Shown here: positions 6,940 to 64,000 of the stretch, piece by piece
Position numbering within the stretch: position 1 is the stretch's first letter
Layout of the letters: each line of letters opens with the position of its first letter
Assembly: GCA_963731345.1 (NCBI GenBank)
Contig: CAVSUN010000005.1
Span: 446,311 to 510,310, forward strand
From: an uncultured Acidobacteriaceae bacterium
GTDB taxonomy: Bacteria > Acidobacteriota > Terriglobia > Terriglobales > Acidobacteriaceae
Reading direction: 5' to 3'
DNA length: 64,000 bases
Made by a program: the position numbers and the translations under genes
The notes under the pieces: generated by a model
What the model saw: only the letters and a program-made list of their open reading frames with translations
What the model was told of the DNA's origin: nothing
The model's database searches: none

Positions 6940-9900
6940 ATGCCCCAACCTGAGTTCGTCCATCTCCATCTTCACACCGACTATTCCATGCTGGACGGCG
7001 CGTGCGAGGTCGAGCGCCTGGTCCAACGCGTCAAGGACTTGAATATGCCGGCGGTCGCCATGACCGACCACGGCAACATCTTTGGCGCGGTCAGGTTCGT
7101 TAATGCAGCCAAAGAAGCGGGCGTGAAGCCGATCCTGGGTTGCGAGCTGTATGTCTGCAAGAAAGAAGATCACCGCGCCGCGCCTGAGGGCGATAGCTAC
7201 AACCATCTGATCGTGCTGGCCGAGAACGATCAAGGCTACCGCAATCTGGTGAAGATCGTCTCGGAAGCCTCGCTGCACGGCTTCTACTACAAACCGCGCA
7301 TCAGCAAGAAATTTCTCGCCGAGCACGCACAAGGTCTGATTGGCCTTTCAGCGTGTCTGAAGGGTGAGGTTGCGGAGAATCTCTCGGAAGGCAAGTACGA
7401 CGCCGCGCGTGCAGCGGCCTCAAGCTTCGCAGACATCTTCGGCAAAGGAAATTTCTATCTCGAAATTCAGGACCAGGGAGTACCGGAAGAAAAGCGAGTC
7501 AATCCACATCTGCTGAAGTTGGAGCAGGAGCTCGACCTGCCGCTAGTGGCTACGAATGACAGCCACTACCTCTGCGAAGAGGACTCGCACGCGCAAGATG
7601 TGATGGTCTGCATCCAGACCGGCAAGTCGATCAACGATACCAACCGGCTGAAGTTCCACGGCAATCAGTTCTTCGTGAAGAGCGCGGCTGAGATGGCGAT
7701 GGTCTTTTCCGGCTACGAACGCGTCCTGGCGCGCAGCATGGAGATTGCCGAGCGCTGCAATATCCGCTTGGAGAAGGTGCACGATCCATTCCCGAAGTTC
7801 GAAGTTCCCGCGGGTTACGCGCTGCCCGACTACTTCGAGCACGTCACCCGCGAGGGTTTCACCAAGCGGCTGGTCATGCTGCGTGATCTCCAGGCCATAG
7901 GACGGTTGAAGCATTCGCTCGAAGACTACGAGAAGCGTCTCTCAAGCGAGATCGAGATCATCCGGCAGATGAAGTTTCCCGGATACTTCCTCATCGTCTG
8001 GGACTTCATCCGCTTCGCCAGGGAACACGACATTCCGGTTGGGCCGGGTCGTGGGTCGGCGGCCGGCTCGCTGGTTGCCTATGCGCTCGCCATCACCGAC
8101 ATTGATCCGCTACAGAACGAGCTGCTCTTCGAGCGCTTCCTCAATCCCGAGCGTATCAGCCTGCCCGATATCGATATCGACTTCTGCATGAATCGTCGCG
8201 GTGAGGTCATCAACTACGTCACGCAGAAGTATGGCCGCGATCAGGTAGCGCAGATCATCACTTTTGGCACCATGGCGGCCAAGGCAGCCATGAAGGATTC
8301 CGGCCGCGCCATGGACATCCCGTACGCCGAAGTCGAGCGCGTAGTGAAGATGATTCCGCCAACGCTGAACATCACCATCGATCAAGCCATAAAGGATTCG
8401 CCTCCGCTCGCCGCAGCCTACGACAACGAGCCGCAGACAAAAGAACTGATCGACACCGCGAAAAAGCTGGAGGGCCTGGTCCGCAATGCCGGTGTCCACG
8501 CGGCTGGTGTCGTGATCTCGCCGTTGCCGCTGACCGATCTTGTTCCGCTGCACCGCACCAAGAACGAGGAAATCGTTACCGCCTATGACATGAAGGCGGT
8601 CGAGAAGCTGGGCCTGTTGAAGATGGACTTCCTCGGGCTCACAACGCTCACGATTATTGACGATGCCTTGCGACTGATCGAGCAGACGCGCAGCGAACGG
8701 ATCGATCTGGAAAAACTCGCCCTGGACGACCAGGTCACGTACGAGAAGGTCTTCCACACCGGCCTGACGTCTGGTGTGTTCCAGTTTGAATCGCACGGCA
8801 TGCGAGACGTGCTACGGCGCTACAAGCCGACCGTCGTCGAAGACCTCACAGCATTAAATGCGCTCTATCGGCCGGGTCCGATTCAGGGCGGCATGATCGA
8901 GGACTTCATCGAGCGCAAGTGGGGACGCCGGAAAATCGAATTCGAGCTGCCTGAGCTGGAGCCGATCCTGAAGGAGACGCTTGGCGTCATCGTCTATCAG
9001 GAGCAGGTGATGCAGATCGCCAACCGGCTGGCAGGCTATTCGCTGGGCGAAGCCGATCTGCTGCGCCGCGCCATGGGAAAGAAAGATCCTGAAGCCATGG
9101 CCAAGCAGCGCGAACGATTCTCGCGCGGGGCTGCCGAACGCGGGTTCCCGCAGAAGAAGGTCGAGAAGCTGTTCGACCTGATGGAGCAGTTCGCCGGATA
9201 TGGTTTCAACAAATCGCACGCCGCGGCCTATGCGCTGCTCGCGTATCAGACCGCGTATCTGAAGACGCACTACCCGGTCGAGTTCATGGCGGCGCTGCTG
9301 ACCTCCGTCTCCGGAAGCACCGACGATGTTGTGAAGTACATCAATGAATGCCGCGAGATGGGCATTGCCGTCGAACCGCCGGACGTGAACGTCAGCGATG
9401 CCTATTTCACGCCGCACGGCGAGGCGATTCGCTTCGGTCTCGCTGCGGTGAAGAACGTCGGGCACAACGCGATTGAATCTATCGTTGAGGCACGCAAGCA
9501 GAGCGGCGCGTTCAACTCGTTCTATCAATTCTGCGAGAAGGTTGATCTCCACCTGCTGAACAAGCGTGTCGTCGAATCGCTGATCAAGAGTGGCGCCATG
9601 GACGCTCTTGGGCGCCGTGCGCAGCTGATAGCGGTCGTCGATAGTGCCATGGAACACGCGCAGAAGTCGCAGAGGGACGCTGCGCTTGGCCAGCACGGCC
9701 TGTTTGGCGTCTTCCAGCAGGACGAAGACAACCAAGTTGCCGAAAAGCCGCTGCCCAACACCCCTGATTGGGATGAGCACCAACGGCTCGCGTTCGAAAA
9801 AGAGATTCTCGGCTTCTTCATTACCGGACATCCACTGGAGAAGTATCAGGAAAAGCTGCTCGATTTTCACGCGTTGACTACGGCCGACATTTGCGACATG

Positions 9901-12986: not shown

Positions 12987-13963
12987 GCGCCCGCCTTCAG
13001 GAGCTGGCGTTCGCGCAGCGTCGCCGTCAGCGAGCGGATGTTTATGTACTGCTTCCCGTGGTTGTAGGCGTCGGTGCGCATTGCCAGCTTGATGGCCTTC
13101 GCGATCATGCCCTGGCTCATATCGGGAGCTTCATGCGCGGCGACCTCGCGCGCTTCTTCTTCGGTCAAACCCGGCAGCACAACCTTGTCCACCAGGCGGT
13201 CGTTCCACTGGCCCAGGCGCGCCGACAGCCGGTTGAATTTGGTGAGCAGCGTGTGCATCCCACACAGTAAGAGCGAGAAATAAGGCGGCCGGTCGAGCAG
13301 GGCCCGAACAGTCTCCAGGCACGTAACCCAGTCGCTCTCGTTGGTTCCGAGGTTCTGCGTCTCGTCAAGGGCCAGCATCACGCGCCGGTTGCGGAAGTCC
13401 CAGGCCAGGTTGCGCCGGATGCGGCACTTGTCGCCGGCAGCCGAGGAGCCGCACGCAATGGCGATATCCTTCATCAGCTGCGTCGGCTTCATGTCCGGAA
13501 CGCAATAAACGTAGTAGGCGAGTCGGCCCTCGCCGTTGCGCGGCATCTCTTCGCGGTTCAGGCGCGCGATCTCATATTCCAGAGTGAATGACTTCTGTGA
13601 TCCCGGCGGACCGTAAACCATAAGAGCCGATGGGCGCTTAAGCAGCTTCTGAATCGAGCGCCGGATCAGCCGCGCGTTCTCGGTCTCGTAGAGCGCGCCC
13701 AGGACCTGTTGCGGCGGTTCGATGGGATGTTCGTGAATAAACTGTTCGATCGCTTGGCACAGCAAACGGTGCGTGCCAGCAATGTTGTTGTAGCGATCGC
13801 TGCTGAATTGCTGAAGTGTTTTCTCGGAGTAGTTGACGCGGCGGGCAAAATCTCCAAGCGTCAGGCCGCTGCGCGTCAGATAGTTTTTCATCAATGGCAT
13901 CACCCGCGCGCGGTCACCGGCTGTTTCGTATAGCTTCTTTTTGTGCTCTTGGCCCTGGGTCAT
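12983..13963 (-). CDS. MuB-like AAA+ transposition ATPase with N-terminal HTH
   Basis: ATG at 13963 overlaps the transposase stop (ATGA). N-terminal HTH LTLGDFARRVNYSEKTLQQFSSDRYNN, Walker A VYGPPGSQKS, Walker B VMLALDETQNL. Confidence 0.75.
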   Translation of the reverse strand: MTQGQEHKKKLYETAGDRARVMPLMKNYLTRSGLTLGDFARRVNYSEKTLQQFSSDRYNNIAGTHRLLCQAIEQFIHEHPIEPPQQVLGALYETENARLIRRSIQKLLKRPSALMVYGPPGSQKSFTLEYEIARLNREEMPRNGEGRLAYYVYCVPDMKPTQLMKDIAIACGSSAAGDKCRIRRNLAWDFRNRRVMLALDETQNLGTNESDWVTCLETVRALLDRPPYFSLLLCGMHTLLTKFNRLSARLGQWNDRLVDKVVLPGLTEEEAREVAAHEAPDMSQGMIAKAIKLAMRTDAYNHGKQYINIRSLTATLRERQLLKAGA

Positions 13964-53534: not shown

Positions 53535-53584
53535 TGGTCGGGACGGGCAGATTTGAACTGCCGACCCCTCGCACCCCAAGCGAG
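53535..53584 (-). other. 3' fragment of tRNA-Pro(GGG): att-like island junction, not a functional tRNA
   Basis: Minus strand reads ctcgc-ttggggt-gcgag-gggtc-ggcag-ttcaaat-ctgcc-cgtcccg-a-cca (anticodon arm to CCA). The upstream 26 nt lack the acceptor partner cgggacg and a D arm. Confidence 0.7.
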
Positions 53585-53757: not shown

Positions 53758-54711
53758 TTAATGGGCTTCCTTGCCGCGCGGGGGGGCGTCTACAGCCTGT
53801 TTTTGACGCCCTAGTCGGTCGCTAAGTGATAGCGCCGTGTCTATTGCGTGGAGGACCCGGATTGCTTCTGCCCGCACATTCGGAGCCTCGAAACGGCCAT
53901 GTTGTATGCCGTGCCGAGAAAGCACCGGAGCGACATTCGGCGAAATGGCCGGAACTTGAACGTAAAGCTCGCTGACAAACGTGGCCAGTGAGAGCCACAT
54001 AGCAGCCGCGAACATCTGGCGCTTTGCATCTCTCGCGACACGGCCTCCTGCCTGAAGTGCCTTCTTTACGTCACGAGAAAGCAAGTTTGGCGGATTTAGT
54101 CGCAGTATGACATTTTCCAGAACCGCAATCAGCTGCGGAATTGCTATCGAGTAGTCTCCACGTCGTATGGAATTGAAGCATTGTGGCAGGACCGTCCGAA
54201 AAGCTTCTGTGGCAACGTGCCCACATATTCGCCTCTCCATCCTTTCCAAGCTGGCGTCGTTTTCGTCATACCATTGCAAGACGTATGAATCAGCATCTTC
54301 TCTCGTCTCAAGCTGCGCCAGTTCAACAAGGTCGCTGAAGTAAAAATGACACGGAAATGTCCAGCCCAGCTTTGCTATATGGTCCGTTCGCTCAAGCGTG
54401 GCTGATACCTGCTTCGATGCATCTGCCACCAGGTTCCCGAACTGCACGCCCAAATGAACAGCATTTGCGATACCTGCTTGGAACGCTCGTATCTCCTCAC
54501 GGTTTACTTCAACCCACGAAACGAAATTCTTTTGGACTTCGCGCAACTGCTGCACAAGCTCCACGTATGGTCCAGCAATCGTTGCGACGGCTTTAGAAAT
54601 CTCCGTCTGGGCTTGGTTGAACTGTCGCACGGTTTCGAGTGTTTCTTTTCTCAAATCCTCGACAATCCTCGCGGTTTGCCCGTCGAGCGCCTTCGAGTGG
54701 TCGTCCGGCAC
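53758..54711 (-). CDS. hypothetical protein with C-terminal HEPN-like Rx4H motif
   Basis: 317 aa, helical. SRHGIQHG (R266..H271, nt 53899-53916) fits the HEPN Rx4-6H signature. No other recognisable domain. Confidence 0.45.
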   Translation of the reverse strand: MPDDHSKALDGQTARIVEDLRKETLETVRQFNQAQTEISKAVATIAGPYVELVQQLREVQKNFVSWVEVNREEIRAFQAGIANAVHLGVQFGNLVADASKQVSATLERTDHIAKLGWTFPCHFYFSDLVELAQLETREDADSYVLQWYDENDASLERMERRICGHVATEAFRTVLPQCFNSIRRGDYSIAIPQLIAVLENVILRLNPPNLLSRDVKKALQAGGRVARDAKRQMFAAAMWLSLATFVSELYVQVPAISPNVAPVLSRHGIQHGRFEAPNVRAEAIRVLHAIDTALSLSDRLGRQKQAVDAPPRGKEAH

Positions 54712-54864
54712 GATTGGTTATCTCCTTGTCATGCAGCGGTTTGATATTTGGCAGGCTGACTTGAGTAATCGACGCATTGACAACTTTCCCCTGAACCCTC
54801 AAGCTTTCTGCGGTCCGTTGGTAGACCGAACTGCGTCGCCTTGCCGCGTACCTCGAAAAGCAAC

Positions 54865-54888
54865 AGTTGCACAGATTGTTGTGCAACT
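54865..54888. promoter_or_regulatory. palindromic operator candidate between the divergent 317-aa gene and the DUF5131 gene
   Basis: agttgcaca-gattgt-tgtgcaact (9-bp arms), 45 nt upstream of the ATG at 54933. Confidence 0.4.
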
Positions 54889-54932
54889 ACAATTCACTTT
54901 AAACTATTCTAGCTTAGCCGAATAAAAAGCGA

Positions 54933-55688
54933 ATGTCTCAGAAGTCTAAAATCGAGTGGACAGATGCAACGTGGAATCCGGTGCGCGGCTGTACGAAGGT
55001 CAGCCCCGGTTGCAAGCACTGCTATGCGGAAGTGTTCGCGGAGCGTTTTCGAGGAGTTCCGAAGCACCCTTACGAACAGGGTTTTGATTTGCGTTTGGTG
55101 CCTGAGAAACTGCAAGAGCCGCTGAAGTGGAGGATGTCGCGCCTCATATTTGTGAACTCGATGAGTGACCTTTTCCAGGACGGAATACCGGACGACTACG
55201 TGGTTCAAGTTGCGGAGGTCATGAATAGCGCCTCTTGGCATACCTTTCAAGTACTTACCAAAAGGGCGGACCGAATGCGGAGCCTGCTCAATTCAAAGCT
55301 CAGATTTGCCGCACAATCTCCGCATATCTGGTGGGGTGTGAGCGTCGAAAATCGCAAGTATGGTTTGCCCCGTATTGCAGAACTGCGAGCAGCTAAGACC
55401 GCGATGCGTTTCTTGTCTGTCGAGCCCTTGCTTGAGGACGTCGGGACGATAGACCTATCGGGTATTCACTGGGTCATCGTAGGGGGCGAGAGCGGTCCCG
55501 GAGCGCGGCCAATGGAGAAAGAGTGGGTTCTGTCCATTCGGAATCAATGCCGGAAGGCGCGAGTCCCGTTCTTTTTCAAGCAGTGGGGAGGCGTTCACAA
55601 AGCCAAGAACGGTCGGATACTCGAAGGTCGAACTTATGACCAGATGCCTACTTTGGGAGTAGCTGTCGCTGGCCACCGTGGAACTTGA
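54933..55688 (+). CDS. DUF5131 (phage Gp37/Gp68) three-Cys-motif protein
   Basis: MSQKSKIEWTDATWNPVRGCTKVSPGCKHCYAE.. and WVIVGGESGPGARPMEKEWV..C....VPFFFKQWGG are hallmarks of the Gp37/Gp68 family. Confidence 0.8.
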   Translation: MSQKSKIEWTDATWNPVRGCTKVSPGCKHCYAEVFAERFRGVPKHPYEQGFDLRLVPEKLQEPLKWRMSRLIFVNSMSDLFQDGIPDDYVVQVAEVMNSASWHTFQVLTKRADRMRSLLNSKLRFAAQSPHIWWGVSVENRKYGLPRIAELRAAKTAMRFLSVEPLLEDVGTIDLSGIHWVIVGGESGPGARPMEKEWVLSIRNQCRKARVPFFFKQWGGVHKAKNGRILEGRTYDQMPTLGVAVAGHRGT

Positions 55689-56796
55689 CGATGGTTCCAT
55701 CAGGGTATGTGCCACGCCTACGCCCCGTCTTCGCACTCACTACGCTCATCGCCCCTTCTTTCTCCATTGGCGCAAGTATTGGCTTTTTAAGGTGTGTTCG
55801 CAAGAACGGAGTGTTTGCGACGACCCAGTCTCCAAGCGCTTCAATCTCTATCTCGATGTTAGCAAATTTGTCTGTGATTATTTCCCGCAGCCAGTCGTAG
55901 TCCGGTGCAGCCTCAAAAAGCGGAATCTGCTTTTTCGAATTAGTGAAATCCGAAAAGGAAAATTCTCCAGCAGGGTCCACCTTCCACATCGCATGCTTCA
56001 TGACGTCAAGACCTTTTAAGCTATTCGTCGCGAAAAACAGAAAGTAGTCAGCCGAATTGCTCTTATTCACCATCTCGAAGGAGCGCACGTACTCACCAAC
56101 AGTTTGGAGTTGTTCCAAATAGAGGTCGTGAATATACGCTAAACGCTCGGCAGGGTCGCAGATACCAATCGCGCCGCGCCATTCGCGAGTGCCAAACTGA
56201 GCATCGAAGTGACCCGCGAAATCGGGATTTGAGAGAAAACGGTTTATCTCCTCGTACATGAAGTTGATTAGAATTTCGGTCTTTGGACTCCCCATCAATT
56301 GCGCCACTGTGTTGAATGGGGTATGCGAGAAGCCAAAGGGGTCGAGGAAAGAGAGTGTTGGTGCGTCTCGTTTTCTCTGCTCTTCAACTTCTGCAAACAC
56401 CTCGTTGACGTGGTCATTAAACTTTCCGTGCAGGTGACGATATTTGATGTTCTTGGGGAGAGTTGGCTTTATGTTGGCTAAGACCTGGACTAGGTGTTCG
56501 TAGCGGCCTCGGTCGTCTTCAATGAACAAACAGATGAGCTCAGCGTTAAACTTCTGAACGTGGTCTCTCGCGGCTTTGAGCACCACGACAGGCGAGCCAT
56601 CTTCGCCCTTGCTATATTCGCCAGGTCCAGCGAAAGCATCAATGTATAGCAGTCGCTGATTGGAGTTCGCTAGTATCGGTAGCCACCCTTGAAAGTGGCG
56701 ACGCAAAATCTCATGTTTTTTCGCTGTGTGCGGTTCAAGGTCCCACACCGTCTCTAAAACCCTGCTCATATCGGTGCTCCTACGATGTGATACCAC
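55648..56796 (-). CDS. tcmP: three-Cys-motif partner protein TcmP
   Basis: WDLEPHTAKKHEILRRHFQGWLPIL..LLYIDAFAGPGEY..GSPVV matches the TcmP N-terminal signature. Start is GTG 56796 or ATG 56769. Confidence 0.72.
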   Translation of the reverse strand: MVSHRRSTDMSRVLETVWDLEPHTAKKHEILRRHFQGWLPILANSNQRLLYIDAFAGPGEYSKGEDGSPVVVLKAARDHVQKFNAELICLFIEDDRGRYEHLVQVLANIKPTLPKNIKYRHLHGKFNDHVNEVFAEVEEQRKRDAPTLSFLDPFGFSHTPFNTVAQLMGSPKTEILINFMYEEINRFLSNPDFAGHFDAQFGTREWRGAIGICDPAERLAYIHDLYLEQLQTVGEYVRSFEMVNKSNSADYFLFFATNSLKGLDVMKHAMWKVDPAGEFSFSDFTNSKKQIPLFEAAPDYDWLREIITDKFANIEIEIEALGDWVVANTPFLRTHLKKPILAPMEKEGAMSVVSAKTGRRRGTYPDGTIVKFHGGQRQLLPK

Positions 56797-56834
56797 GCAG
56801 TTGTCATGAATAAAAGGCGAAATTGCAGTGGTAA

Positions 56835-56875
56835 TTGTGCAAAAGTGTGGATAGGTTGTGCAAGGCTGTGCACAG
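56835..56875. promoter_or_regulatory. repeated TGTGCA(A/C) motifs upstream of tcmP
   Basis: ttgtgcaa at 56835-56842 and 56856-56863 (21-bp spacing), plus the palindrome ctgtgcacag at 56866-56875. Confidence 0.4.
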
Positions 56876-57028
56876 CAATGAGTGCGTTGCGCTCTCGGGT
56901 TTTGCCGTTGGGCGTTTTACAGGAAGGAACCGCCTCAAGCGGTGATGCTTTGACGAGCGGTCTTCATGCCGCCAGAAAGGTAGGTTAGTTTCCGTGAGCA
57001 CATCCCCGCAGAGGGGGCGATGGAAGTT

Positions 57029-57952
57029 CTATTCCTCGAAGTAGCTCGAATCTAGTTTTGGTACGTGGAGCGGACGAAGGGTGACACCAATTCCGTGCTC
57101 GACCATCAATTCGGCGAGCTTAATACCGTTAAGAAGGACGATTCGCTCGACTGACTTTGCAAACTCTGTTGCCTGTGGCGTGAAGTTCGATGTCGTGATG
57201 AACACGCCCTTGGTTGCTTTCTGCCCGGCAAGCGCGCCGTAAAACGCTTGAACTTCCGGGCGTCCAACGACACTTTGCCACCGCTTAGCTTGAACGTATA
57301 CCTTTTCCAAGCCGAGACGGTCCAGGGAAATGACGCCATCTATTCCTGCGTCGCCGGGGCCGCCAATCCTTGCCAAATCCTCTTCACTTCTGCCGTACCC
57401 AATTTTGTAAAGAACGTCGAGGACAATATCCTCAAAATGTTCCGGCGAGACTTTAGAAAGCGTTTCAACAAGCTCTGCGGTGACGCTTTGTCGCAGTTCG
57501 GCGAGCGCCTGCTCAAGCCGGTCATCCGGGCTCACTTTAGCTGTATCAGGTGGAGCTGGAGTAGTAAGGGTGGCGGTCACAGATTCTTGAGAGTCAGATG
57601 CCGCACTAAGACGGACGTCAGTGTTCTCGGTAGCAAGCTTTTCCACCGTTTCCGGCGATAAGGGGGTAGGATGACTGCTCGCGAAGGTACGGCCTTGTTC
57701 GGTCAATTGCCAATATCCGAATTTGGGGCTTTGCGAGAATCCCGCGCGCTTGAGGCGGTCATGCGCCCAACCCGCACGATTCTTGTAAACCCGCTGAGCG
57801 CCGCTCGGGAGTATTTCGGAACGGTCGGCATCGCTCAGATGCAATGCGTCGGCTGCGGCGTTATGTACCTCGGCTGCGGCGGCTCCGTCGGGGTGCTCAG
57901 CTAAGTACCGCAGTACGGGCTCAATGAATTTGTCGTATGTCGGAACAGGCAA
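57029..57952 (-). CDS. mrr: Mrr-type (type IV) restriction endonuclease
   Basis: TTG at 57952 after GGAGG gives (M)PVPTYDKFIEPVLRYLAEHPDG (Mrr_N winged helix). C-terminal FEDIVLDVLYKIGYG..GDAGIDGVI..VYVQAKRWQ..VGRPEVQAFYGAL..KGVFITTSNFT is Mrr_cat. Confidence 0.8.
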   Translation of the reverse strand: MPVPTYDKFIEPVLRYLAEHPDGAAAAEVHNAAADALHLSDADRSEILPSGAQRVYKNRAGWAHDRLKRAGFSQSPKFGYWQLTEQGRTFASSHPTPLSPETVEKLATENTDVRLSAASDSQESVTATLTTPAPPDTAKVSPDDRLEQALAELRQSVTAELVETLSKVSPEHFEDIVLDVLYKIGYGRSEEDLARIGGPGDAGIDGVISLDRLGLEKVYVQAKRWQSVVGRPEVQAFYGALAGQKATKGVFITTSNFTPQATEFAKSVERIVLLNGIKLAELMVEHGIGVTLRPLHVPKLDSSYFEE

Positions 57953-58218
57953 TTGAACCTCCGGGCCGCGCGTGTTTCGCCGTGGCTTGGGGCATCGCCC
58001 CGATTGTACCGTGATGGCGCAAATGCAATTAAGCGACGCGCCGGTTCCCGGGCACGTCGGCTCTTGAGCCTGCTTTTCTCTAGCTGTCGCCTTCTCCGCA
58101 CCCCCCGCGCGGAGGGGGCGGACGGGGTACGTGCTACGATGATGCGATTCCATAGCCTCAGCAATAGCGGACTGACGCCCCGTTTTCCGCGTGGAAACCT
58201 TGTTGCGGATTCGCACCC

Positions 58219-61200
58219 ATGCGCGCGCCAACCCAGCAAACGACAGCCGACCCGGTTCCTAGTGATCCGAAGAAAATCTGCACGTGGTTCGCGGAGGCCG
58301 TCCGGCACGAAATCGAAGAACTTACAAAAACTGGAAAACAAGCGCAATACGAGGTTCACTCGGGCAGCTTTCAGCAGTTGGCAGCAAACGGCGATGCAGT
58401 CTTTCGTTTCCGTCTTGCAGACGGCACCCTCATCCCGGAAGATTCTTCGGGCTACCTACACATTGGGGAGTCCAAATATCGTGCAACGGTAATCAGTCAG
58501 CAGGAAATTGTCATTTTCATCCAAGTCGTTGGTCTGAATGCGCCCAATGTACCTAGGGCGCTGTTGGCGATTGATGACACTGCTCTACTGGAAAGGCTTG
58601 CTGAACAACTGGAAAACGTCGCTGCAAGCATCGGCGTAGGGCCAATAGCAGTGTCTGCCTTTCACCCAAGCAACGCGATAGTGAACAAGGACTCAACGGT
58701 CGATTTAAGCGCGTCACCGCTTAGTGACGAACAGCGCCAGGTCTTGCGGCAGGCTCTAGGTTCAACTGTTACCTACGTATGGGGGCCGCCGGGCACCGGA
58801 AAGACACACCTAATTGCTCATCTAATCGCTGCCCTCCTGTCCAGCAAACAGCGAGTGCTACTCACTAGCCATACGCACGTGGCAGTAGACCAAGCGCTCT
58901 ACGAGACGGTGAAATATGAAAATACCCACGCTCAGTATGCTTCGTCTGATGGTCCCGTCGAGTTTATGCGGCACACCTCTTGCCCAAACTGCGGGTTCTC
59001 TTGGAACGAACACCCCCAGAGTGGCGAGTGCCCCTTGCACTCAGAGTTGAACCAAACACGCTCAAGGTCGAAAGGGCCACTCGCAAATGACCCGCTCATT
59101 GCGGAAGGGAAAATTCTGCGTCTTGGCAGAACACAGGACCCAAAGGTCGGAACGGACTTCAGGTTCGAGGATGTCGTGGCGCGACGGTCAGGGCAGATTA
59201 GCGGTGATCTCGCGAAAGCGCAACACGAACTGCAGCACCTCACAGCGGACCGCGATTCGCTTACCGACCAACTTCGTGAGTGGGACCAATTGGACGCCCT
59301 GAAGCGTCAATTGGAACAGACAGACGTAAGCGCGAGAGAAGCCCGTGGCCGACTGTCACGCGCGGAGAGTGAGCTCAAAGCCCGGCAGCAGAGTGTGTCG
59401 CGCTGCGAAATTGATTTGGGTAGCCTGCAAGCTGCGTGGTTCTTTCGTGAGGTCCGGGAGCGAAACACAAGACGAAGGCTGGAGCGCTGTGAGACTGATT
59501 TTGAAAAGGCAAGACAAGAATATGCGCTTGCTTTTGACGCTGTCCAACAGGCTGAACAAACGTATGAACATGCAAGCAGGGCTGTGCAGCTTCAAGAGGG
59601 CTGTTGCGCAGGTTTGAGGCAGCGGACCGAAATCACTGCTAGGCTTTCGACTCTCAATCCTCGAATCGCTGATGTGGAAACCTCGATTCAGAAGCTAGAG
59701 CTGGACATTGCGAGCCTGGCCAAAGCAGTGCTATCCGACGCTGTAGCTGTGTTCTGTACCCTCACGAAGAACTACATTGGCAGGGAACTAGACGCCGAGT
59801 CTTTCGACGCTGTCATTGTGGACGAGATATCAATGGCACTCCCTCCTCTGGTGCTATTGGCGGCTGCACGGGCCACATCGCGACTCATTCTAGTGGGCGA
59901 CTTCCATCAGCTCCCTCCAATCGTTCGCAGCGATTCTGAGATTAGTAGCGTCCGACTGCGCCAGGACATTTTTCACCTAGCGGGAGTTGTTGCAGGTAAT
60001 AGTCGCATAACCTCCGAGTCGCCCGTGCTCGCGCGTCTGTCCACCCAAAGAAGGATGGTTCCGGAAATTGCGGATGTTGCAAGGCACCTTGTATATTCTT
60101 CACACCTCAAAGACCATGACGCCGTTTTCGATCGGGAATGTCCCGGGTGGCTGAGCTTCTTGCCGGATTCTCCGCTCGTTGTCGTAGACACTGCGGACCT
60201 TCACTGCTGGAGCGGCAAACAACCAGGCAGCCTCAGCCGTTTCAACTTCTATTCCGCGCAGCTAGCCACAGAGCTGGCGAGTATGGCCGCCGCGGACTGC
60301 CCAAAGCCCGCCGAAGGAGAGCCGCCTGAAATCGGCATCGTCACACCTTATGCCGCTCAGCGTCGCTTGTTGAATAGACATCTGATGGCAATGCAACTGG
60401 AGTCTTGGGTTGCGGCGGGGACCGTGCATACCTTCCAGGGAAAGGAGGCGAAATTCATAATCTTCGATTCAGTGTTGGATGAGCCTTACTATTCAGCTCG
60501 GCTGTGCGACCCCCGCAACCTTGGTGAGATTTTAAGAGAGCTAAATGTCGCCGTAACCCGCTCTAAGTTCAAGTTTGCCTTTATCGGGTCGTCCGAATGG
60601 CTAAACAAACACGCCTCGCCTGCAAGTGCTTTAGGCAAACTATGGATGTATCTCCAAAATAATGCCGAGTTTGTGCCCGCAGCCGACTTGGTAGAGTCGG
60701 GTTTCGGGCAGCGGGTGCTGGAACGCGATTCATCCGAGACATGGCAGTTGCCTCTTTCCCGCGACAACGACCGCGTACATCAAGTCCTTGATGAGAATAC
60801 GTTTTTCGAGTATTTCTTATGCGACCTAAGGACATGCTCTCAAAACATCTTCGGTTTAGTACCTTACTTTGGCGAATATCGCTGGCCGCGCATTGAGCCT
60901 AGCCTTAGTGCGGCGCTCGAACGCAGCGTCGAGGTGACGCTGGTCACACCGCCTTTAGCAGAGGCCGCGAACAGGGCATATGTCGAAGCGGCGATTCGGC
61001 ATCTTCGCGAGTTAGGTGCAGTCGTAATCTGTGCCTCTGGATTGCACGGCAAAGACATCATCATAGATGAACGCATCTGTTACACGGGAAGTTTGAATTG
61101 GGCGAGCCATCGCGGACGGCTCGAAATCATGCACCGGACGGTTAATGAGCAACTCGCTGCTCTCATGCTCAAGTATTTGCAAGCTCGTTTTATTCGAGAA

Positions 61201-61509
61201 GCTGCGGTTTTCGAGGATGGCACCGCGCGGCTTTGTCCCTTCTGTCACAAGGCAACGCAAGTTGTGAATCAGCGCCGACAACATGGTCCTTGGGATTTTC
61301 AAGCTATGAAGGTCGGATGCTCCAATCCAGAATGCCAACAATATCTTCGGTCAATAGACGAACGCCCGCCTTTCAGAGTAACTCCAACTTGCGCCCAGGA
61401 CGGACAAACTAAGCTGCGAAGAGTACGCCGGGGCCGAGGGGAAGCATGGGAATGCCCCAAACACCCAAGAGCTGAGCGCGAAAAAGTTGTACCCGGCGAC
61501 CCGCCTTGA
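58219..61509 (+). CDS. SF1 (DNA2/Upf1-like, AAA_11/AAA_12) helicase fused to an HKD PLD-family nuclease domain and C-terminal zinc ribbons
   Basis: Walker A GPPGTGKT (58783-58806), DEISMA, LILVGDFHQLPP, STQRRM, IVTPYAAQ, VHTFQGKEA, NVAVTRSK. CCCH knuckle CPNC..CPLH (58981-59040). Coiled-coil insert. HKD LHGKDIIID..GSLNW (61045-61068 onward). CPFC/CSNPEC/C..CPKH (61234-61470). Confidence 0.85.
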   Translation: MRAPTQQTTADPVPSDPKKICTWFAEAVRHEIEELTKTGKQAQYEVHSGSFQQLAANGDAVFRFRLADGTLIPEDSSGYLHIGESKYRATVISQQEIVIFIQVVGLNAPNVPRALLAIDDTALLERLAEQLENVAASIGVGPIAVSAFHPSNAIVNKDSTVDLSASPLSDEQRQVLRQALGSTVTYVWGPPGTGKTHLIAHLIAALLSSKQRVLLTSHTHVAVDQALYETVKYENTHAQYASSDGPVEFMRHTSCPNCGFSWNEHPQSGECPLHSELNQTRSRSKGPLANDPLIAEGKILRLGRTQDPKVGTDFRFEDVVARRSGQISGDLAKAQHELQHLTADRDSLTDQLREWDQLDALKRQLEQTDVSAREARGRLSRAESELKARQQSVSRCEIDLGSLQAAWFFREVRERNTRRRLERCETDFEKARQEYALAFDAVQQAEQTYEHASRAVQLQEGCCAGLRQRTEITARLSTLNPRIADVETSIQKLELDIASLAKAVLSDAVAVFCTLTKNYIGRELDAESFDAVIVDEISMALPPLVLLAAARATSRLILVGDFHQLPPIVRSDSEISSVRLRQDIFHLAGVVAGNSRITSESPVLARLSTQRRMVPEIADVARHLVYSSHLKDHDAVFDRECPGWLSFLPDSPLVVVDTADLHCWSGKQPGSLSRFNFYSAQLATELASMAAADCPKPAEGEPPEIGIVTPYAAQRRLLNRHLMAMQLESWVAAGTVHTFQGKEAKFIIFDSVLDEPYYSARLCDPRNLGEILRELNVAVTRSKFKFAFIGSSEWLNKHASPASALGKLWMYLQNNAEFVPAADLVESGFGQRVLERDSSETWQLPLSRDNDRVHQVLDENTFFEYFLCDLRTCSQNIFGLVPYFGEYRWPRIEPSLSAALERSVEVTLVTPPLAEAANRAYVEAAIRHLRELGAVVICASGLHGKDIIIDERICYTGSLNWASHRGRLEIMHRTVNEQLAALMLKYLQARFIREAAVFEDGTARLCPFCHKATQVVNQRRQHGPWDFQAMKVGCSNPECQQYLRSIDERPPFRVTPTCAQDGQTKLRRVRRGRGEAWECPKHPRAEREKVVPGDPP

Positions 61510-61882: not shown

Positions 61883-62656
61883 TTAAGTTGCGTCCTTTTG
61901 CAGCCCAAACGATTCTGCGAGCTGCTGTACACGGTCGCGCTGCGCTGTTGTAAGCTGCTTCATTCGCTTCCCCGGATAAAGTTGCTTGAGCGCCCGCTGG
62001 TTCCTACGAAAGCGATAGACTTGGGCACCGCTCACGCATGTTCGGGAGCAATAGTCTTGGTCAATTCGAGTCTTAGCAAATAGCTTTCCGCAGCCGTCCC
62101 TTGCTTCGGGGCAGATGCCGACGTACATCCGCACAGGCGTAAATCGCTCACCGCCCTTAGCCTTGGCGAGGCTGGTTCTGACTGTCTTGTCCAGTAATCG
62201 AAGCAGCTTGAAAACTACAGCTTCCAACTTAGCTTCGCTGTGTTCGGTGGCGGATTGCCCTAGTCGGTCAGGAATTGTGCTGACGTATTCCACGCCTTCA
62301 GCCCGCGTGAATATCACTTTCACGTACTTCAACGAATGTTCTATTTCCCTGTTACCAGCAGCCGCCCGGAGAACGCGAGCGAATTCCTGTTGCGCCTGAT
62401 TGACTTCGATTCCTCGAAAGGAATCGTTCTTCCACGGATGCTCAGTCATCAAGGCATTGATCTGCTTTGCAACGGTGACACCCTCATAAGGCCGCAGGTT
62501 CCGTGCCCAAAGAAAGCAGGTCAATTCCAACTCTGCATTCAATTGGCTCTCTGGCGTCGAAATCTTTCGCTGCGAGAGATCGACGGTCCATGTCAGCCGG
62601 TCCAATGGTCTCGCGCCCACCCGCTTCATTGCTCCCAAGATCAAGGGCTCCTTCAT
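61883..62656 (-). CDS. hypothetical protein with C-terminal CGNR-like zinc finger
   Basis: CPEARDGCGKLFAKTRIDQDYCSRTCVSGAQVYRFRRNQ resembles the CGNR zinc-finger pattern. Confidence 0.45.
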   Translation of the reverse strand: MKEPLILGAMKRVGARPLDRLTWTVDLSQRKISTPESQLNAELELTCFLWARNLRPYEGVTVAKQINALMTEHPWKNDSFRGIEVNQAQQEFARVLRAAAGNREIEHSLKYVKVIFTRAEGVEYVSTIPDRLGQSATEHSEAKLEAVVFKLLRLLDKTVRTSLAKAKGGERFTPVRMYVGICPEARDGCGKLFAKTRIDQDYCSRTCVSGAQVYRFRRNQRALKQLYPGKRMKQLTTAQRDRVQQLAESFGLQKDAT

Positions 62657-62778: not shown

Positions 62779-63273
62779 ATGACTGACGCAATTGATGAGT
62801 TGGTAGCACGCTCAAAGGATTGTCCCGAATTGCGGGCATTCCATGACTTTCACCGGAAGCACCCGGAAGTCCTGGATTTCTTGGTAGAGGAAATCCGTCT
62901 GCGCATCTCCCACGGTTTCCGGGCGTTTGCGTTTCAATCGCTGTGGAGTTACGCACGTTGGAAACTTGAAGTGACGAAGGGACCAACTGACACATACAAG
63001 ATGAATGACCACCTCTGCCCCTTTTACTCCCGGGCAATCATCATCTTGCACCCGGAAGAGTTTAACGGCCTAGCCGAACTCCGTCCCGCGAAAGCGGACG
63101 AGATTTTCGACACTCGGATTGAGCCGGAGCAGGGCAAGCGCCCGAAGAATTACGCGCGGCGGCTGCAATGGGCGGACAGCACCGCGATTGAGGACGGATG
63201 GCGGCCTAGCACTCCGCACGTGGTCAATCAGTCCGTAAACCGCAAACCCGATATTCACGGAAAGGGAGAGTGA
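62779..63273 (+). CDS. hypothetical protein upstream of PrimPol
   Basis: 164-aa ORF directly preceding the PrimPol gene (5-nt gap). No motif recognised. Confidence 0.4.
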   Translation: MTDAIDELVARSKDCPELRAFHDFHRKHPEVLDFLVEEIRLRISHGFRAFAFQSLWSYARWKLEVTKGPTDTYKMNDHLCPFYSRAIIILHPEEFNGLAELRPAKADEIFDTRIEPEQGKRPKNYARRLQWADSTAIEDGWRPSTPHVVNQSVNRKPDIHGKGE

Positions 63274-63277
63274 GCAC

Positions 63278-64000
63278 ATGAGCACCTTCCTAGATATTGC
63301 GCTTGCCTGTGTCCGGCGCGGTTGGTTCGTTCACCCACTCAAGCCGAGCGGCAAGATTCCAGTCACCAAGCATGGCAAGAATGACGCAACACTTGATGAG
63401 GCCCAAGTCCGCGAATGGTGGGCACGCAATCCCGCCTGCAACGTGGGCATCTCATGCGGACCTAGTGGGCTGTGCGTCCTGGACGTGGACCACGGCCTCA
63501 AGGATGAGCAGGACTTCAAGGCGTGGCGTGACCGCAACGGCTTGCCCGTCACGTATGCTGTGCGCTCAGGCCGTCGCGATGAGTACGGCGTCCAAAGCTA
63601 CTACCGGGGCACACTACCGGACGGACGTTTTGAGCTGGACGGCGCGCGTGGTGACATCAAGAGCGCGGGCGGGTTGGTGCTCGCAGCGGGCGACATTCAC
63701 CCGGTCACCGGCGAAGCATACTACGTGCTGGAGGACGCACCGCTTACGCCGGTCCCCGCAATCGTTGACCAATCGCGCGTGAGGCAGCAAGTTTCTGCCG
63801 CGTTGGAGGGCGGAGACATCACGGAAAACCGTAACCTTGCCATGACAAGCATACTCGGCAAGATGCGTGACGCCGGACTTTCAGATGAGCTGCTGCGGGA
63901 CTATGCCCTCCGTACCAATGAAGCTCGGATGAAGCCGCCGCTTGATGAGGATGAGCTAGAGGGCATCATCCGCAACGCTTGCAAGTGGCCCATCCCCACA
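63278..64000 (+). CDS. bifunctional DNA primase/polymerase (PrimPol) N-terminal domain protein, 3' end outside the window
   Basis: ATG at 63278 after GGGAGAG; read by hand because the frame stays open to the window end and is missing from the ORF track. ALACVRRGWFVHPLKP..KIPVTKHG, NVGISCGPSGLCVLDVDH and GGLVLAAGDIHPVTGEAY, then a PriCT-like RNLAMTSILGKMR. Confidence 0.72.
   Translation, partial: MSTFLDIALACVRRGWFVHPLKPSGKIPVTKHGKNDATLDEAQVREWWARNPACNVGISCGPSGLCVLDVDHGLKDEQDFKAWRDRNGLPVTYAVRSGRRDEYGVQSYYRGTLPDGRFELDGARGDIKSAGGLVLAAGDIHPVTGEAYYVLEDAPLTPVPAIVDQSRVRQQVSAALEGGDITENRNLAMTSILGKMRDAGLSDELLRDYALRTNEARMKPPLDEDELEGIIRNACKWPIPT

Follow-up and report, generated by a model that had tools for sequence, protein, structure and literature searches.

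What two adjacent genes of functionally uncharacterized families do, and whether they form a unit, is the question raised by a locus in a 64,000-nt stretch of DNA from an uncultured Acidobacteriaceae bacterium (contig CAVSUN010000005.1, positions 446,311–510,310; hereafter the window). The genes encode a DUF5131 protein of the Gp37/Gp68 family (54933–55688, plus strand, 251 aa) and a TcmP protein (55648–56769, minus strand, 373 aa). An earlier model-generated reading of the DNA letters (the sequence-only reading) had proposed them as a candidate DNA-modification or defence system. The present analysis showed that the region at 54.86–56.89 kb is an autonomous, horizontally mobile two-gene cassette of approximately 2 kb with mapped boundaries. 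The chances were judged to be about even that the two proteins act jointly on nucleic acid to install a covalent modification, which a mobile element would use as a defence or counter-defence mark.

The gene pair is already listed in PADLOC-DB v2 as the phage defence candidate PDC-M30, with PDC-M41 as its sister (Payne et al. 2024, bioRxiv 10.1101/2024.01.29.577857), and it is therefore less new than first supposed. The 145 PDC systems are genes embedded in BREX, DISARM and type I restriction–modification (R-M) loci ('guilt-by-embedding'), and their authors call them untested (bioRxiv 10.1101/2024.01.29.577857). The composition of PDC-M30, the same two families in adjacent genes, is identical to that of the window pair. 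To judge by its genes, the cassette is thus a further member of this catalogued candidate and not a new kind of system, with the clade of the window adding the convergent overlap, a shared palindrome and a tRNA-Pro island. New here are the RlmJ-like fold of TcmP, the 18-bp shared candidate operator, the stop-sharing tail-to-tail layout that is also found in Gordonia phages, and the boundaries of cassette and island. The earlier statement that neither family has an experimentally defined function agrees with the literature searched, in which no paper characterizing DUF5131, TcmP, PDC-M30 or GMT-wHTH was found.

Conservation of the gene pair

One genome per species was scanned, giving 52 loci with TcmP relatives (designated by L-numbers, with WIN for the window). 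DUF5131 adjoined TcmP in 45 of the 52, and these pairs came from Acidobacteriota, Myxococcota, Alphaproteobacteria, Chloroflexota and Bacillota. The regular genomic partnership of the two families, which the sequence-only reading had stated, was therefore reproduced. Three gene orders were observed. The genes were tail to tail in 17 Acidobacteriota loci and in the window, formed a DUF5131-to-TcmP operon in 27 loci (Myxococcota, Alphaproteobacteria, Chloroflexota and two Acidobacteriota contigs), and ran from TcmP to DUF5131 in one Bacillota locus. An all-against-all comparison of 182 flanking proteins revealed no recurrent third gene, and in the related loci the pair is never accompanied by any of the window's other island proteins. 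A 257-aa gene found beside DUF5131 elsewhere was considered as a partner and rejected, as it matched the window gene at 61883–62656 only in length and is not homologous to it. The conserved unit is the DUF5131–TcmP pair, and the pairing looks obligate.

The 3' ends of the two coding sequences overlap by 41 nt at 55648–55688, exactly as first read. All 17 convergent relatives also overlap, by exactly 4 nt in 11 of them and by 30–177 nt in the rest. Direct reading showed the 4-nt shared stop, [CT]TA[AG], in 10 of these 11 loci and in the Gordonia phages Easley and Bosnia. In the window, the ancestral shared stop has been lost, with both genes reading on to produce the 41-nt overlap. With this tail-to-tail arrangement, the two genes require separate promoters.

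The DUF5131 protein

The product of 54933–55688 matched the Pfam model PF07505 (DUF5131) over its whole length (E = 1.6e-99; 332.8 bits, cut-off 28.9), with residues 4–239 aligned to profile positions 1–243 of 243. Its three-Cys N-terminus reads R18-GCTKVSPGCKHCYAE-33 (residues 18–33, RGCTKVSPGCKHCYAE), with C20, C27 and C30 present, and the Gp37/Gp68 identity assigned from the letters was thereby confirmed. In PADLOC, the protein matched PDC-M30B at E = 5.2e-105, the values for PDC-M30B and PDC-M41B both being about 1e-105. Among 54 DUF5131 homologues, C20, C27 and C30 (C-x6-C-x2-C) and the stretch VGGESG at 183–188 were invariant. The family is very large, with at least 8000 scored candidates in the protein search.

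DUF5131 is homologous to TIGR04471, 'radical SAM mobile pair protein A' (SAM, S-adenosylmethionine), at a score below the cut-off of that model (E = 9.7e-22; 77 versus 355 bits). RadicalSAM.org lists DUF5131 as radical SAM subgroup Megacluster-5-2, beside spore photoproduct lyase in 5-3 (PMC9477430). It is on RadicalSAM.org/SFLD and on the homology to TIGR04471 that DUF5131 is placed in the radical SAM superfamily. It is placed in the same megacluster as spore photoproduct lyase and has a Cys triad and a GGE-like motif. Its Cys spacing is C-x6-C-x2-C, it scores far below the cut-off of TIGR04471, and no PDB match by sequence or fold speaks for a specific relationship with spore photoproduct lyase or the other small radical SAM enzymes. 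PDB sequence searches with the single sequence and with a profile returned no useful match, none of the viperin families in NCBIfam was matched, and longer DUF5131 homologues carried no informative additional Pfam domain. An AlphaFold2 (AF2) model had a mean predicted local distance difference test (pLDDT) score of 68 and a beta/alpha barrel-like core, in which alternating beta/alpha units at residues 74–216 were of locally high confidence.

The TcmP protein

The minus-strand gene had been delimited as the open reading frame (ORF) 55648–56796. Its family, strand and 3' end stand; the start was revised, the real one being most likely the ATG at 56769, which gives a protein of 373 aa. This start is indicated by an AGGAG 8 nt upstream of that ATG, by the PADLOC profile, which begins at residue 10 of the longer ORF, by homologues that open with MSK, and by public gene calls of 373 aa on identical contigs. 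The NCBIfam model TIGR04474 was matched far above its cut-off (E = 5.3e-63; 213.4 bits against 53) over residues 22–273 of the longer ORF and profile positions 1–262 of 263, and PADLOC PDC-M30A was matched over the full length (E = 1.7e-67). With these matches and those of DUF5131 to PF07505 and PDC-M30B, both family assignments held in hidden Markov model searches, and the TcmP signature, including IDAFAGPGEY, is present as described. The TcmP family comprises approximately 4800 cluster representatives at 50% identity. In seven related loci (L017, L026, L039, L043, L044, L045 and L050), TcmP is split into two frames, and DUF5131 is split in L022 only; some of the frameshifts may be long-read assembly errors.

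The AF2 model of TcmP, built from 82 homologues, had a pLDDT of 85 and a predicted template modelling score (pTM) of 0.83, and adopts a class I Rossmann-type SAM-methyltransferase fold. The best PDB fold matches were to E. coli RlmJ (6qdx, 6qe0 and 7p9i; E = 4e-6 to 1.2e-5), followed by other small-molecule and RNA methyltransferases and by aminopropyltransferases. The 63 matches at E ≤ 1e-3 were class I methyltransferases or aminopropyltransferases nearly throughout, and a viral fold library returned generic methyltransferases only. Motif I of TcmP, YIDAFAGPGEY, aligns with YLDTHAGAGRY of RlmJ, and together with the modelled fold this supports the earlier likening of IDAFAGPGEY to SAM-methyltransferase motif I. 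Within the motif I core, F46, G48 and G50 are invariant and D44 and A47 nearly so. E84, at the end of strand beta-2, the usual position of the SAM-ribose ligand, is invariant in close homologues and nearly so in the wider set. SAM-binding motifs I and II are intact. After strand beta-4 (138–142), D143-P144-F145-G146 occupies the position of motif IV; D143, P144 and G146 are invariant, phage and Bacillota homologues included, and the site is therefore under selection, though derived.

A winged helix was modelled at the C-terminus, at about residues 291–363, outside the 263-position TIGR04474 model, and several TcmP homologues match PF22560, 'GMT-like wHTH'. PDB searches with the TcmP sequence or profile gave nothing useful, and longer homologues carried no informative additional Pfam domain. 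On the strength of the methyltransferase fold, the motifs and the winged helix, TcmP has the appearance of an enzyme that binds SAM and is directed to nucleic acid, with a DNA-binding tail. The candidate catalytic residues of the pair are C20, C27 and C30 in DUF5131 and D44, E84 and D143 in TcmP.

These matches also suggest a different substrate, in that the pair could modify RNA (rRNA or tRNA), with the mobile element tuning or protecting translation in the way that RlmJ, RlmN and Cfr act. RlmJ, the 23S rRNA m6A2030 methyltransferase of E. coli, is the best structural match and has in common with TcmP the fold, the similar motif I (Y-x-D-x-x-A-G-x-G-x-Y) and an N-terminal K-H motif. RlmN and Cfr provide a precedent for radical SAM and methyl chemistry on rRNA adenines. 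However, TcmP gave no match to any Pfam model, the RlmJ-type model included, up to E = 10, which places it outside the RlmJ family, and in a direct hhalign comparison with RlmJ the probability was 7%, with only motif I aligned. TcmP also differs from RlmJ in having DPFG instead of DPPY, the extra winged helix, a radical SAM partner and carriage by mobile elements. The winged helix, the embedding in R-M, BREX and DISARM loci and the place in a phage immunity region fit a DNA-directed role better, and modification of RNA was considered quite unlikely.

Conserved elements upstream of both genes

The half-site repeats that the sequence-only reading had listed in both upstream regions were all read at their positions: AGTTGCACA-n6-TGTGCAACT at 54865–54888, upstream of DUF5131, and TTGTGCAA at 56835–56842 and 56856–56863 with CTGTGCACAG at 56867–56876, upstream of TcmP. 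Across the 64-kb window, TGTGCA is not over-represented (27 observed versus 34 expected). Six of the 27 occurrences fall within the two short intergenic regions, and 60-nt windows with at least three copies were found only at 56808–56857. When sequences were shuffled and any hexamer common to both regions was counted, the observed level was reached in 5 of 5000 trials.

The half-site was found to be part of an 18-bp palindrome, TGCAC-N8-GTGCR, which occurs at two places only in the 64 kb, one upstream of each gene. The first, TGCACAGATTGTTGTGCA at 54868–54885, is the core of the 54865–54888 repeat; the second, TGCACAGCAATGAGTGCG at 56869–56886, has the same N8 geometry and lies 100–117 nt upstream of the TcmP ATG. 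The first is present at the same position in L002, L003/L011, L026 and L013, and its arms change together between loci (TTGCAC/GTGCAA versus TCGCAC/GTGCGA). The second is found in L001, L002 and L039, 112–132 nt upstream of TcmP. A search of about 1 Mb of related loci located the core GCAC-N8-GTGC in the cassette flanks of L001, L002 (both sides), L003/L011, L026 and L039, and at approximately 12 scattered sites elsewhere. The motif is thus no general feature of intergenic DNA, this having been a concern of the earlier reading.

In the aligned loci, the region upstream of DUF5131 consists of GCAACA, TGCAC-N8-GTGCrA, a spacer of 15–18 nt, TATTCT, GCGAAnAAAAnGCGAA and the ATG. TATTCT (54905–54910, plus strand) lies 18 nt downstream of the GTGCAA half-site in the window; at 15–18 nt downstream of GTGCrA it is kept in WIN, L001, L002, L003, L013 and L017, and it is TATTGT in L026. 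This hexamer is a putative −10 element, although a strict sigma-70 scan did not call it, the −35 position being poor. If it is the −10, the palindrome at 54868–54885 would be centred near −40, about 40 nt upstream of the predicted DUF5131 transcription start.

An alternative to an operator is that the TGTGCA-type repeats are promoter elements of an unusual sigma factor, or that 54863–54890 is a minus-strand terminator which halts read-through from TcmP. The GTGCrA half-site does stand at a −35-like place, 15–18 nt upstream of TATTCT. A scan called 54890–54863 on the minus strand as a terminator-like hairpin of 11 pairs followed by TGCTTTTCGA, and the tail-to-tail overlap leaves no space for a terminator between the genes. 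The T-rich tail, however, is found in the window only and not in L001, L002 or L003, and G-C pairs make up only 4 of the 11 in the stem. Upstream of TcmP, where a terminator would serve no purpose, the palindrome recurs with identical N8 spacing, and the paired changes of its arms fit a dimeric DNA-binding protein. The terminator reading is the less likely one, given the unconserved T-tail and the recurrence of the palindrome, and this alternative as a whole, sigma-factor elements included, was rated unlikely. A sigma-54 reading of TTGCAC-N8-GTGCAA was rejected by inspection, as the GG and GC spacing is missing.

Under the operator reading, both genes would be controlled together by a single dimeric regulator that binds the palindrome. 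Since the cassette brings no regulator gene along, the protein that binds these elements must be either TcmP, by its winged helix, or a host factor shared among Acidobacteriaceae. The simplest candidate regulator would be the winged helix of TcmP itself, acting by autoregulation.

Further conserved DNA was found around the palindromes. A leader motif, GAATAAAAAGCGAA (54920–54933, plus strand; family consensus GCGAAnAAAAnGCGAA), ends in the A of the DUF5131 ATG and precedes the DUF5131 start in nearly all Acidobacteria loci, even where the promoters differ. The 64 kb hold just two copies of this 14-nt motif, GAATAAAARGCGAA, which bracket both genes. The second copy, GAATAAAAGGCGAA (56808–56821, plus strand), is a direct repeat of the leader and is conserved as GAAGAAAAAGCGAAATTGC in L001, L002, L004 and L026. 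Read on the TcmP strand, it is complementary to the DUF5131 leader at 13 of 14 positions, and the TcmP 5' region, TTCGCCTTTTATTC, was considered for pairing with that leader. The repeat could be a protein site, a site of trans-antisense pairing or a relic.

Upstream of TcmP, an array of TGTGCA/TGTGGA boxes (56836–56874; starts at 56836, 56846, 56857 and 56867) has spacings of 10, 11 and 10 nt, or one box per helical turn. The element of approximately 100 nt that comprises this array and the palindrome is conserved in six loci with unrelated neighbouring genes; blocks of TTGTGCA, TGTGGAT and CTGTGCACAA are kept in L001, L002, L026 and L039, and partly in L004. By this pattern of conservation, the non-coding elements travel with the cassette. 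Two other readings of the region were discarded. A micro-ORF (MKKKRNCxxxCA; L002, L004 and L026) has no start codon in L001 and in the window runs to 60 aa, and the block is probably non-coding because its conserved DNA segments are separated by a variable spacer. A possible DnaA box, TGTGGATAG (56846–56854; 8 of 9 positions of TGTGGATAA by eye), varies in its distal bases in the relatives (TGTGGATTG and TGTGGGTTG).

Carriage by phages

DUF5131 was present in 181 phage records, chiefly of Mycobacterium, Gordonia and Burkholderia phages, versus 11 records for TcmP, ten of them from Gordonia phages; DUF5131 therefore has a TcmP-independent activity. In the temperate Gordonia phages Easley (L056, 4350–6841) and Bosnia (L057, 4354–6826), TcmP is the next gene downstream of the immunity repressor, in the same orientation and abutting or overlapping its end, and DUF5131 converges on TcmP, the two sharing a 4-nt stop. 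In actinophage prophages, this is usually the place of genes expressed in the lysogen. The TcmP homologue of the two phages is annotated as 'methyltransferase' or as hypothetical. The tail-to-tail cassette is common to two distant bacterial phyla or their phages. Its carriage by phages implies that the module is not simply host defence, an equally good fit being a modification by which the element protects or marks its own DNA.

Phage carriage also bears on the possibility that the pair is an anti-phage effector acting on free nucleotides or transcripts, in which DUF5131 would make a toxic or chain-terminating analogue, TcmP would be a sensor, regulator or tailoring enzyme, and genomic DNA would stay unmarked. 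Prokaryotic viperins and the three-gene Ophion system are established radical SAM enzymes of anti-phage immunity encoded in defence islands (bioRxiv 10.1101/2025.09.30.679545). The pair is itself a PADLOC defence candidate located in defence islands, and many phages carry DUF5131 without TcmP. Viperins and Ophion, however, belong to another radical SAM clade with free-nucleotide substrates, Ophion has PHP and PRTase partners, and neither has a methyltransferase-like winged-helix partner as the window pair has. DUF5131 is assigned to another radical SAM megacluster, next to spore photoproduct lyase, and matches no viperin model in NCBIfam; the winged helix and base-flipping-type fold of TcmP point to a polymer substrate; and pure host defence does not predict carriage by phages, lysogeny modules included. 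An effector of this type was regarded as improbable.

The island and neighbouring genes

A 50-nt 3' fragment of tRNA-Pro(GGG) at 53535–53584 (minus strand), an att-type repeat, marks the left edge of an island in the window. The link to tRNA was found by reading the sequence and by blastn against L013. The fragment is 100% identical to two repeats in L013, one at 7925–7974 and the other the 3' end of an intact tRNA-Pro at 13490–13566. The L013 repeats flank a 5.5-kb island, inserted in the intact tRNA-Pro, that contains a tyrosine integrase, a truncated TcmP and DUF5131. Because the same 50 nt recur in the window and in L013, tRNA-Pro(GGG) is a recurrent integration site for elements that carry the pair. 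Across 54–63 kb of the window the GC content falls from about 0.59 to 0.50–0.56. Within the window, ARAGORN and Rfam at gathering thresholds detected no intact tRNA or known RNA family, nor did a tRNA turn up in the 1.7 kb beyond the window end. Of the earlier proposal of a tRNA-linked island, the island and its tRNA link are borne out by the fragment and the low GC content, and an intact tRNA in the window is not. By these repeats, the cassette is placed in an integrative island at a tRNA-Pro site.

The gene directly upstream of TcmP, on the same strand (57029–58231, minus), encodes an Mrr-type, methyl-directed type IV restriction enzyme (Mrr_N and Mrr_cat; PADLOC mREase_IV, E = 1e-111), which does not accompany the pair in other loci. 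The divergent gene that follows (58219–61509, plus strand) shares 13 nt at its start with the upstream end of the Mrr ORF. It encodes a 1096-aa protein with an Upf1-like superfamily 1 (SF1) helicase (AAA_11/AAA_12) and a C-terminal PLD nuclease. The matches of this protein to PADLOC Mokosh models (MkoA, E = 3e-60; MkoC, E = 1.4e-42) suggest a resemblance to the type II Mokosh single-protein defence gene. The Mrr and helicase-PLD neighbours, and with them the defence context, had thus been recognized correctly. By contrast, the label 'HEPN-like' for the 317-aa product of 53758–54711 (minus strand) found no backing in Pfam or NCBIfam; by eye, only an R-x4-H (SRHGIQHG) was seen near the C-terminus. 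That protein matches PHROG 30981, a function-unassigned family (E = 6e-15), has a marginal match to PADLOC ZorA (E = 0.0014), and has no homologue in any of the 52 related loci.

At the other end, a gene for a 576-aa Prim-Pol/PriCT_1/AAA_25 primase-helicase (63249–64000, plus strand) runs off the window and is complete in L055 (8572–10302). In the contigs identical to the window it is followed by a 413-aa minus-strand gene. A primase-helicase of this kind is typical of a self-replicating or integrative element.

Homologous pairs have similar surroundings. Their neighbours include tyrosine integrases, serine recombinases, IS21, IS110, Tn7-like genes, terminase, ParB, type I/III methylases, DrmD, SIR2-like, PDC-S05/RhuM and Nmad2/3, a mixture typical of mobile elements and defence. 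The neighbour-family scan lists top families, and the defence association of the pair is therefore qualitative. Together with the phage immunity region, these integrases, transposon genes, methylases, DrmD and SIR2 bear out the mobile and defence context that had been expected of homologous pairs. In Sinorhizobium meliloti, the TcmP gene SMa2243 immediately follows the Hna defence gene SMa2245 in a list of genes with raised expression in a nolR+ strain (PMC12445080).

A second public assembly of the locus (L053, ENA contig) is 98.2% identical to the window. Its gene calls truncate both TcmP (296 aa) and Mrr (115 aa), and the full-length helicase-PLD gene is not called; the truncations and the missing call are presumably due to indel errors. 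Two short-read contigs (L054 and L055) are 100% identical to the window, and one of them ends within the tRNA-Pro repeat.

Proposed function

In the joint action proposed at the outset, the substrate would be nucleic acid, most likely DNA. TcmP would provide target recognition, base access and SAM-dependent transfer, DUF5131 would provide 5'-deoxyadenosyl-radical chemistry, and the outcome would be a base carrying a non-canonical covalent modification. The mark would be used epigenetically, either to exclude unmarked invaders with nucleases of the host or island, or to shield the element's own DNA from restriction. A more specific version holds that the pair installs an undescribed radical-SAM-dependent DNA base modification, such as a C-alkylated or hypermodified purine. 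TcmP would read the sequence and flip the base, DUF5131 would catalyse, and the mark would be an epigenetic self-label of temperate phages and islands. This version is tentative and was considered unlikely.

Several observations weigh against joint modification of DNA. For DUF5131, the Cys spacing is C-x6-C-x2-C versus the canonical C-x3-C-x2-C by which radical SAM proteins hold a [4Fe-4S] cluster, the model is poor at the N-terminus, which is disordered (pLDDT < 50 for residues 1–36), and the fold search returned generic TIM barrels only, at E = 7e-3 or worse. For TcmP, motif IV has neither the second proline nor the aromatic fourth residue of (D/N)PP(Y/F/W), with the consequence that methyl transfer is not assured; RlmJ, its nearest structural relative, acts on rRNA instead of DNA. 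The methyl-directed Mrr is an awkward neighbour for an enzyme that makes ordinary N6-methyladenine (m6A) or 5-methylcytosine (m5C). Approximately 170 phage records have DUF5131 without TcmP. In L012 (7320–10954) TcmP is interrupted by an IS21-family element, and in L013 (10004–10915) it is N-terminally truncated beside a resolvase fragment, DUF5131 being intact in both; the two proteins are therefore not strictly interdependent. Finally, no experiment on the pair was found in the literature searched.

The same loci speak to a further alternative, an R-M-like or toxin–antitoxin-like pair in which unmarked DNA would be damaged by the radical chemistry of DUF5131, with TcmP serving as protective methylase or antidote. 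Like many R-M gene pairs, the two genes are convergent, with separate promoters and putative co-regulation, and in the prophages TcmP is co-transcribed with the repressor while DUF5131 lies on the other strand. Against this, DUF5131 stays intact where TcmP has been destroyed or truncated, phages carry it alone, and 27 loci have a simple DUF5131-to-TcmP operon, none of which suits a lethal enzyme dependent on an antidote. The first two facts and the non-canonical motif IV of TcmP argue strongly against a toxin–antidote or R-M-like relation. No cognate nuclease is conserved beside TcmP, and the adjacent Mrr is of type IV and not kept with the pair. This alternative was judged very improbable.

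Joint modification of nucleic acid thus stands at the strength given at the outset, and the pair is a target of moderate interest that a specialist would not find surprising. For DUF5131/Gp37-Gp68, a family of very large size without an assigned function, the locus makes a well-defined experimental target, offering a candidate operator, candidate catalytic residues and natural comparison cases in cultivable Gordonia phages. Should the pair turn out to modify nucleic acid or confer immunity by radical-SAM chemistry, the known repertoire of DNA marks and defence systems would gain a new chemistry. If it makes a radical-SAM DNA base mark, a function would be assigned to the large phage Gp37/Gp68 family.

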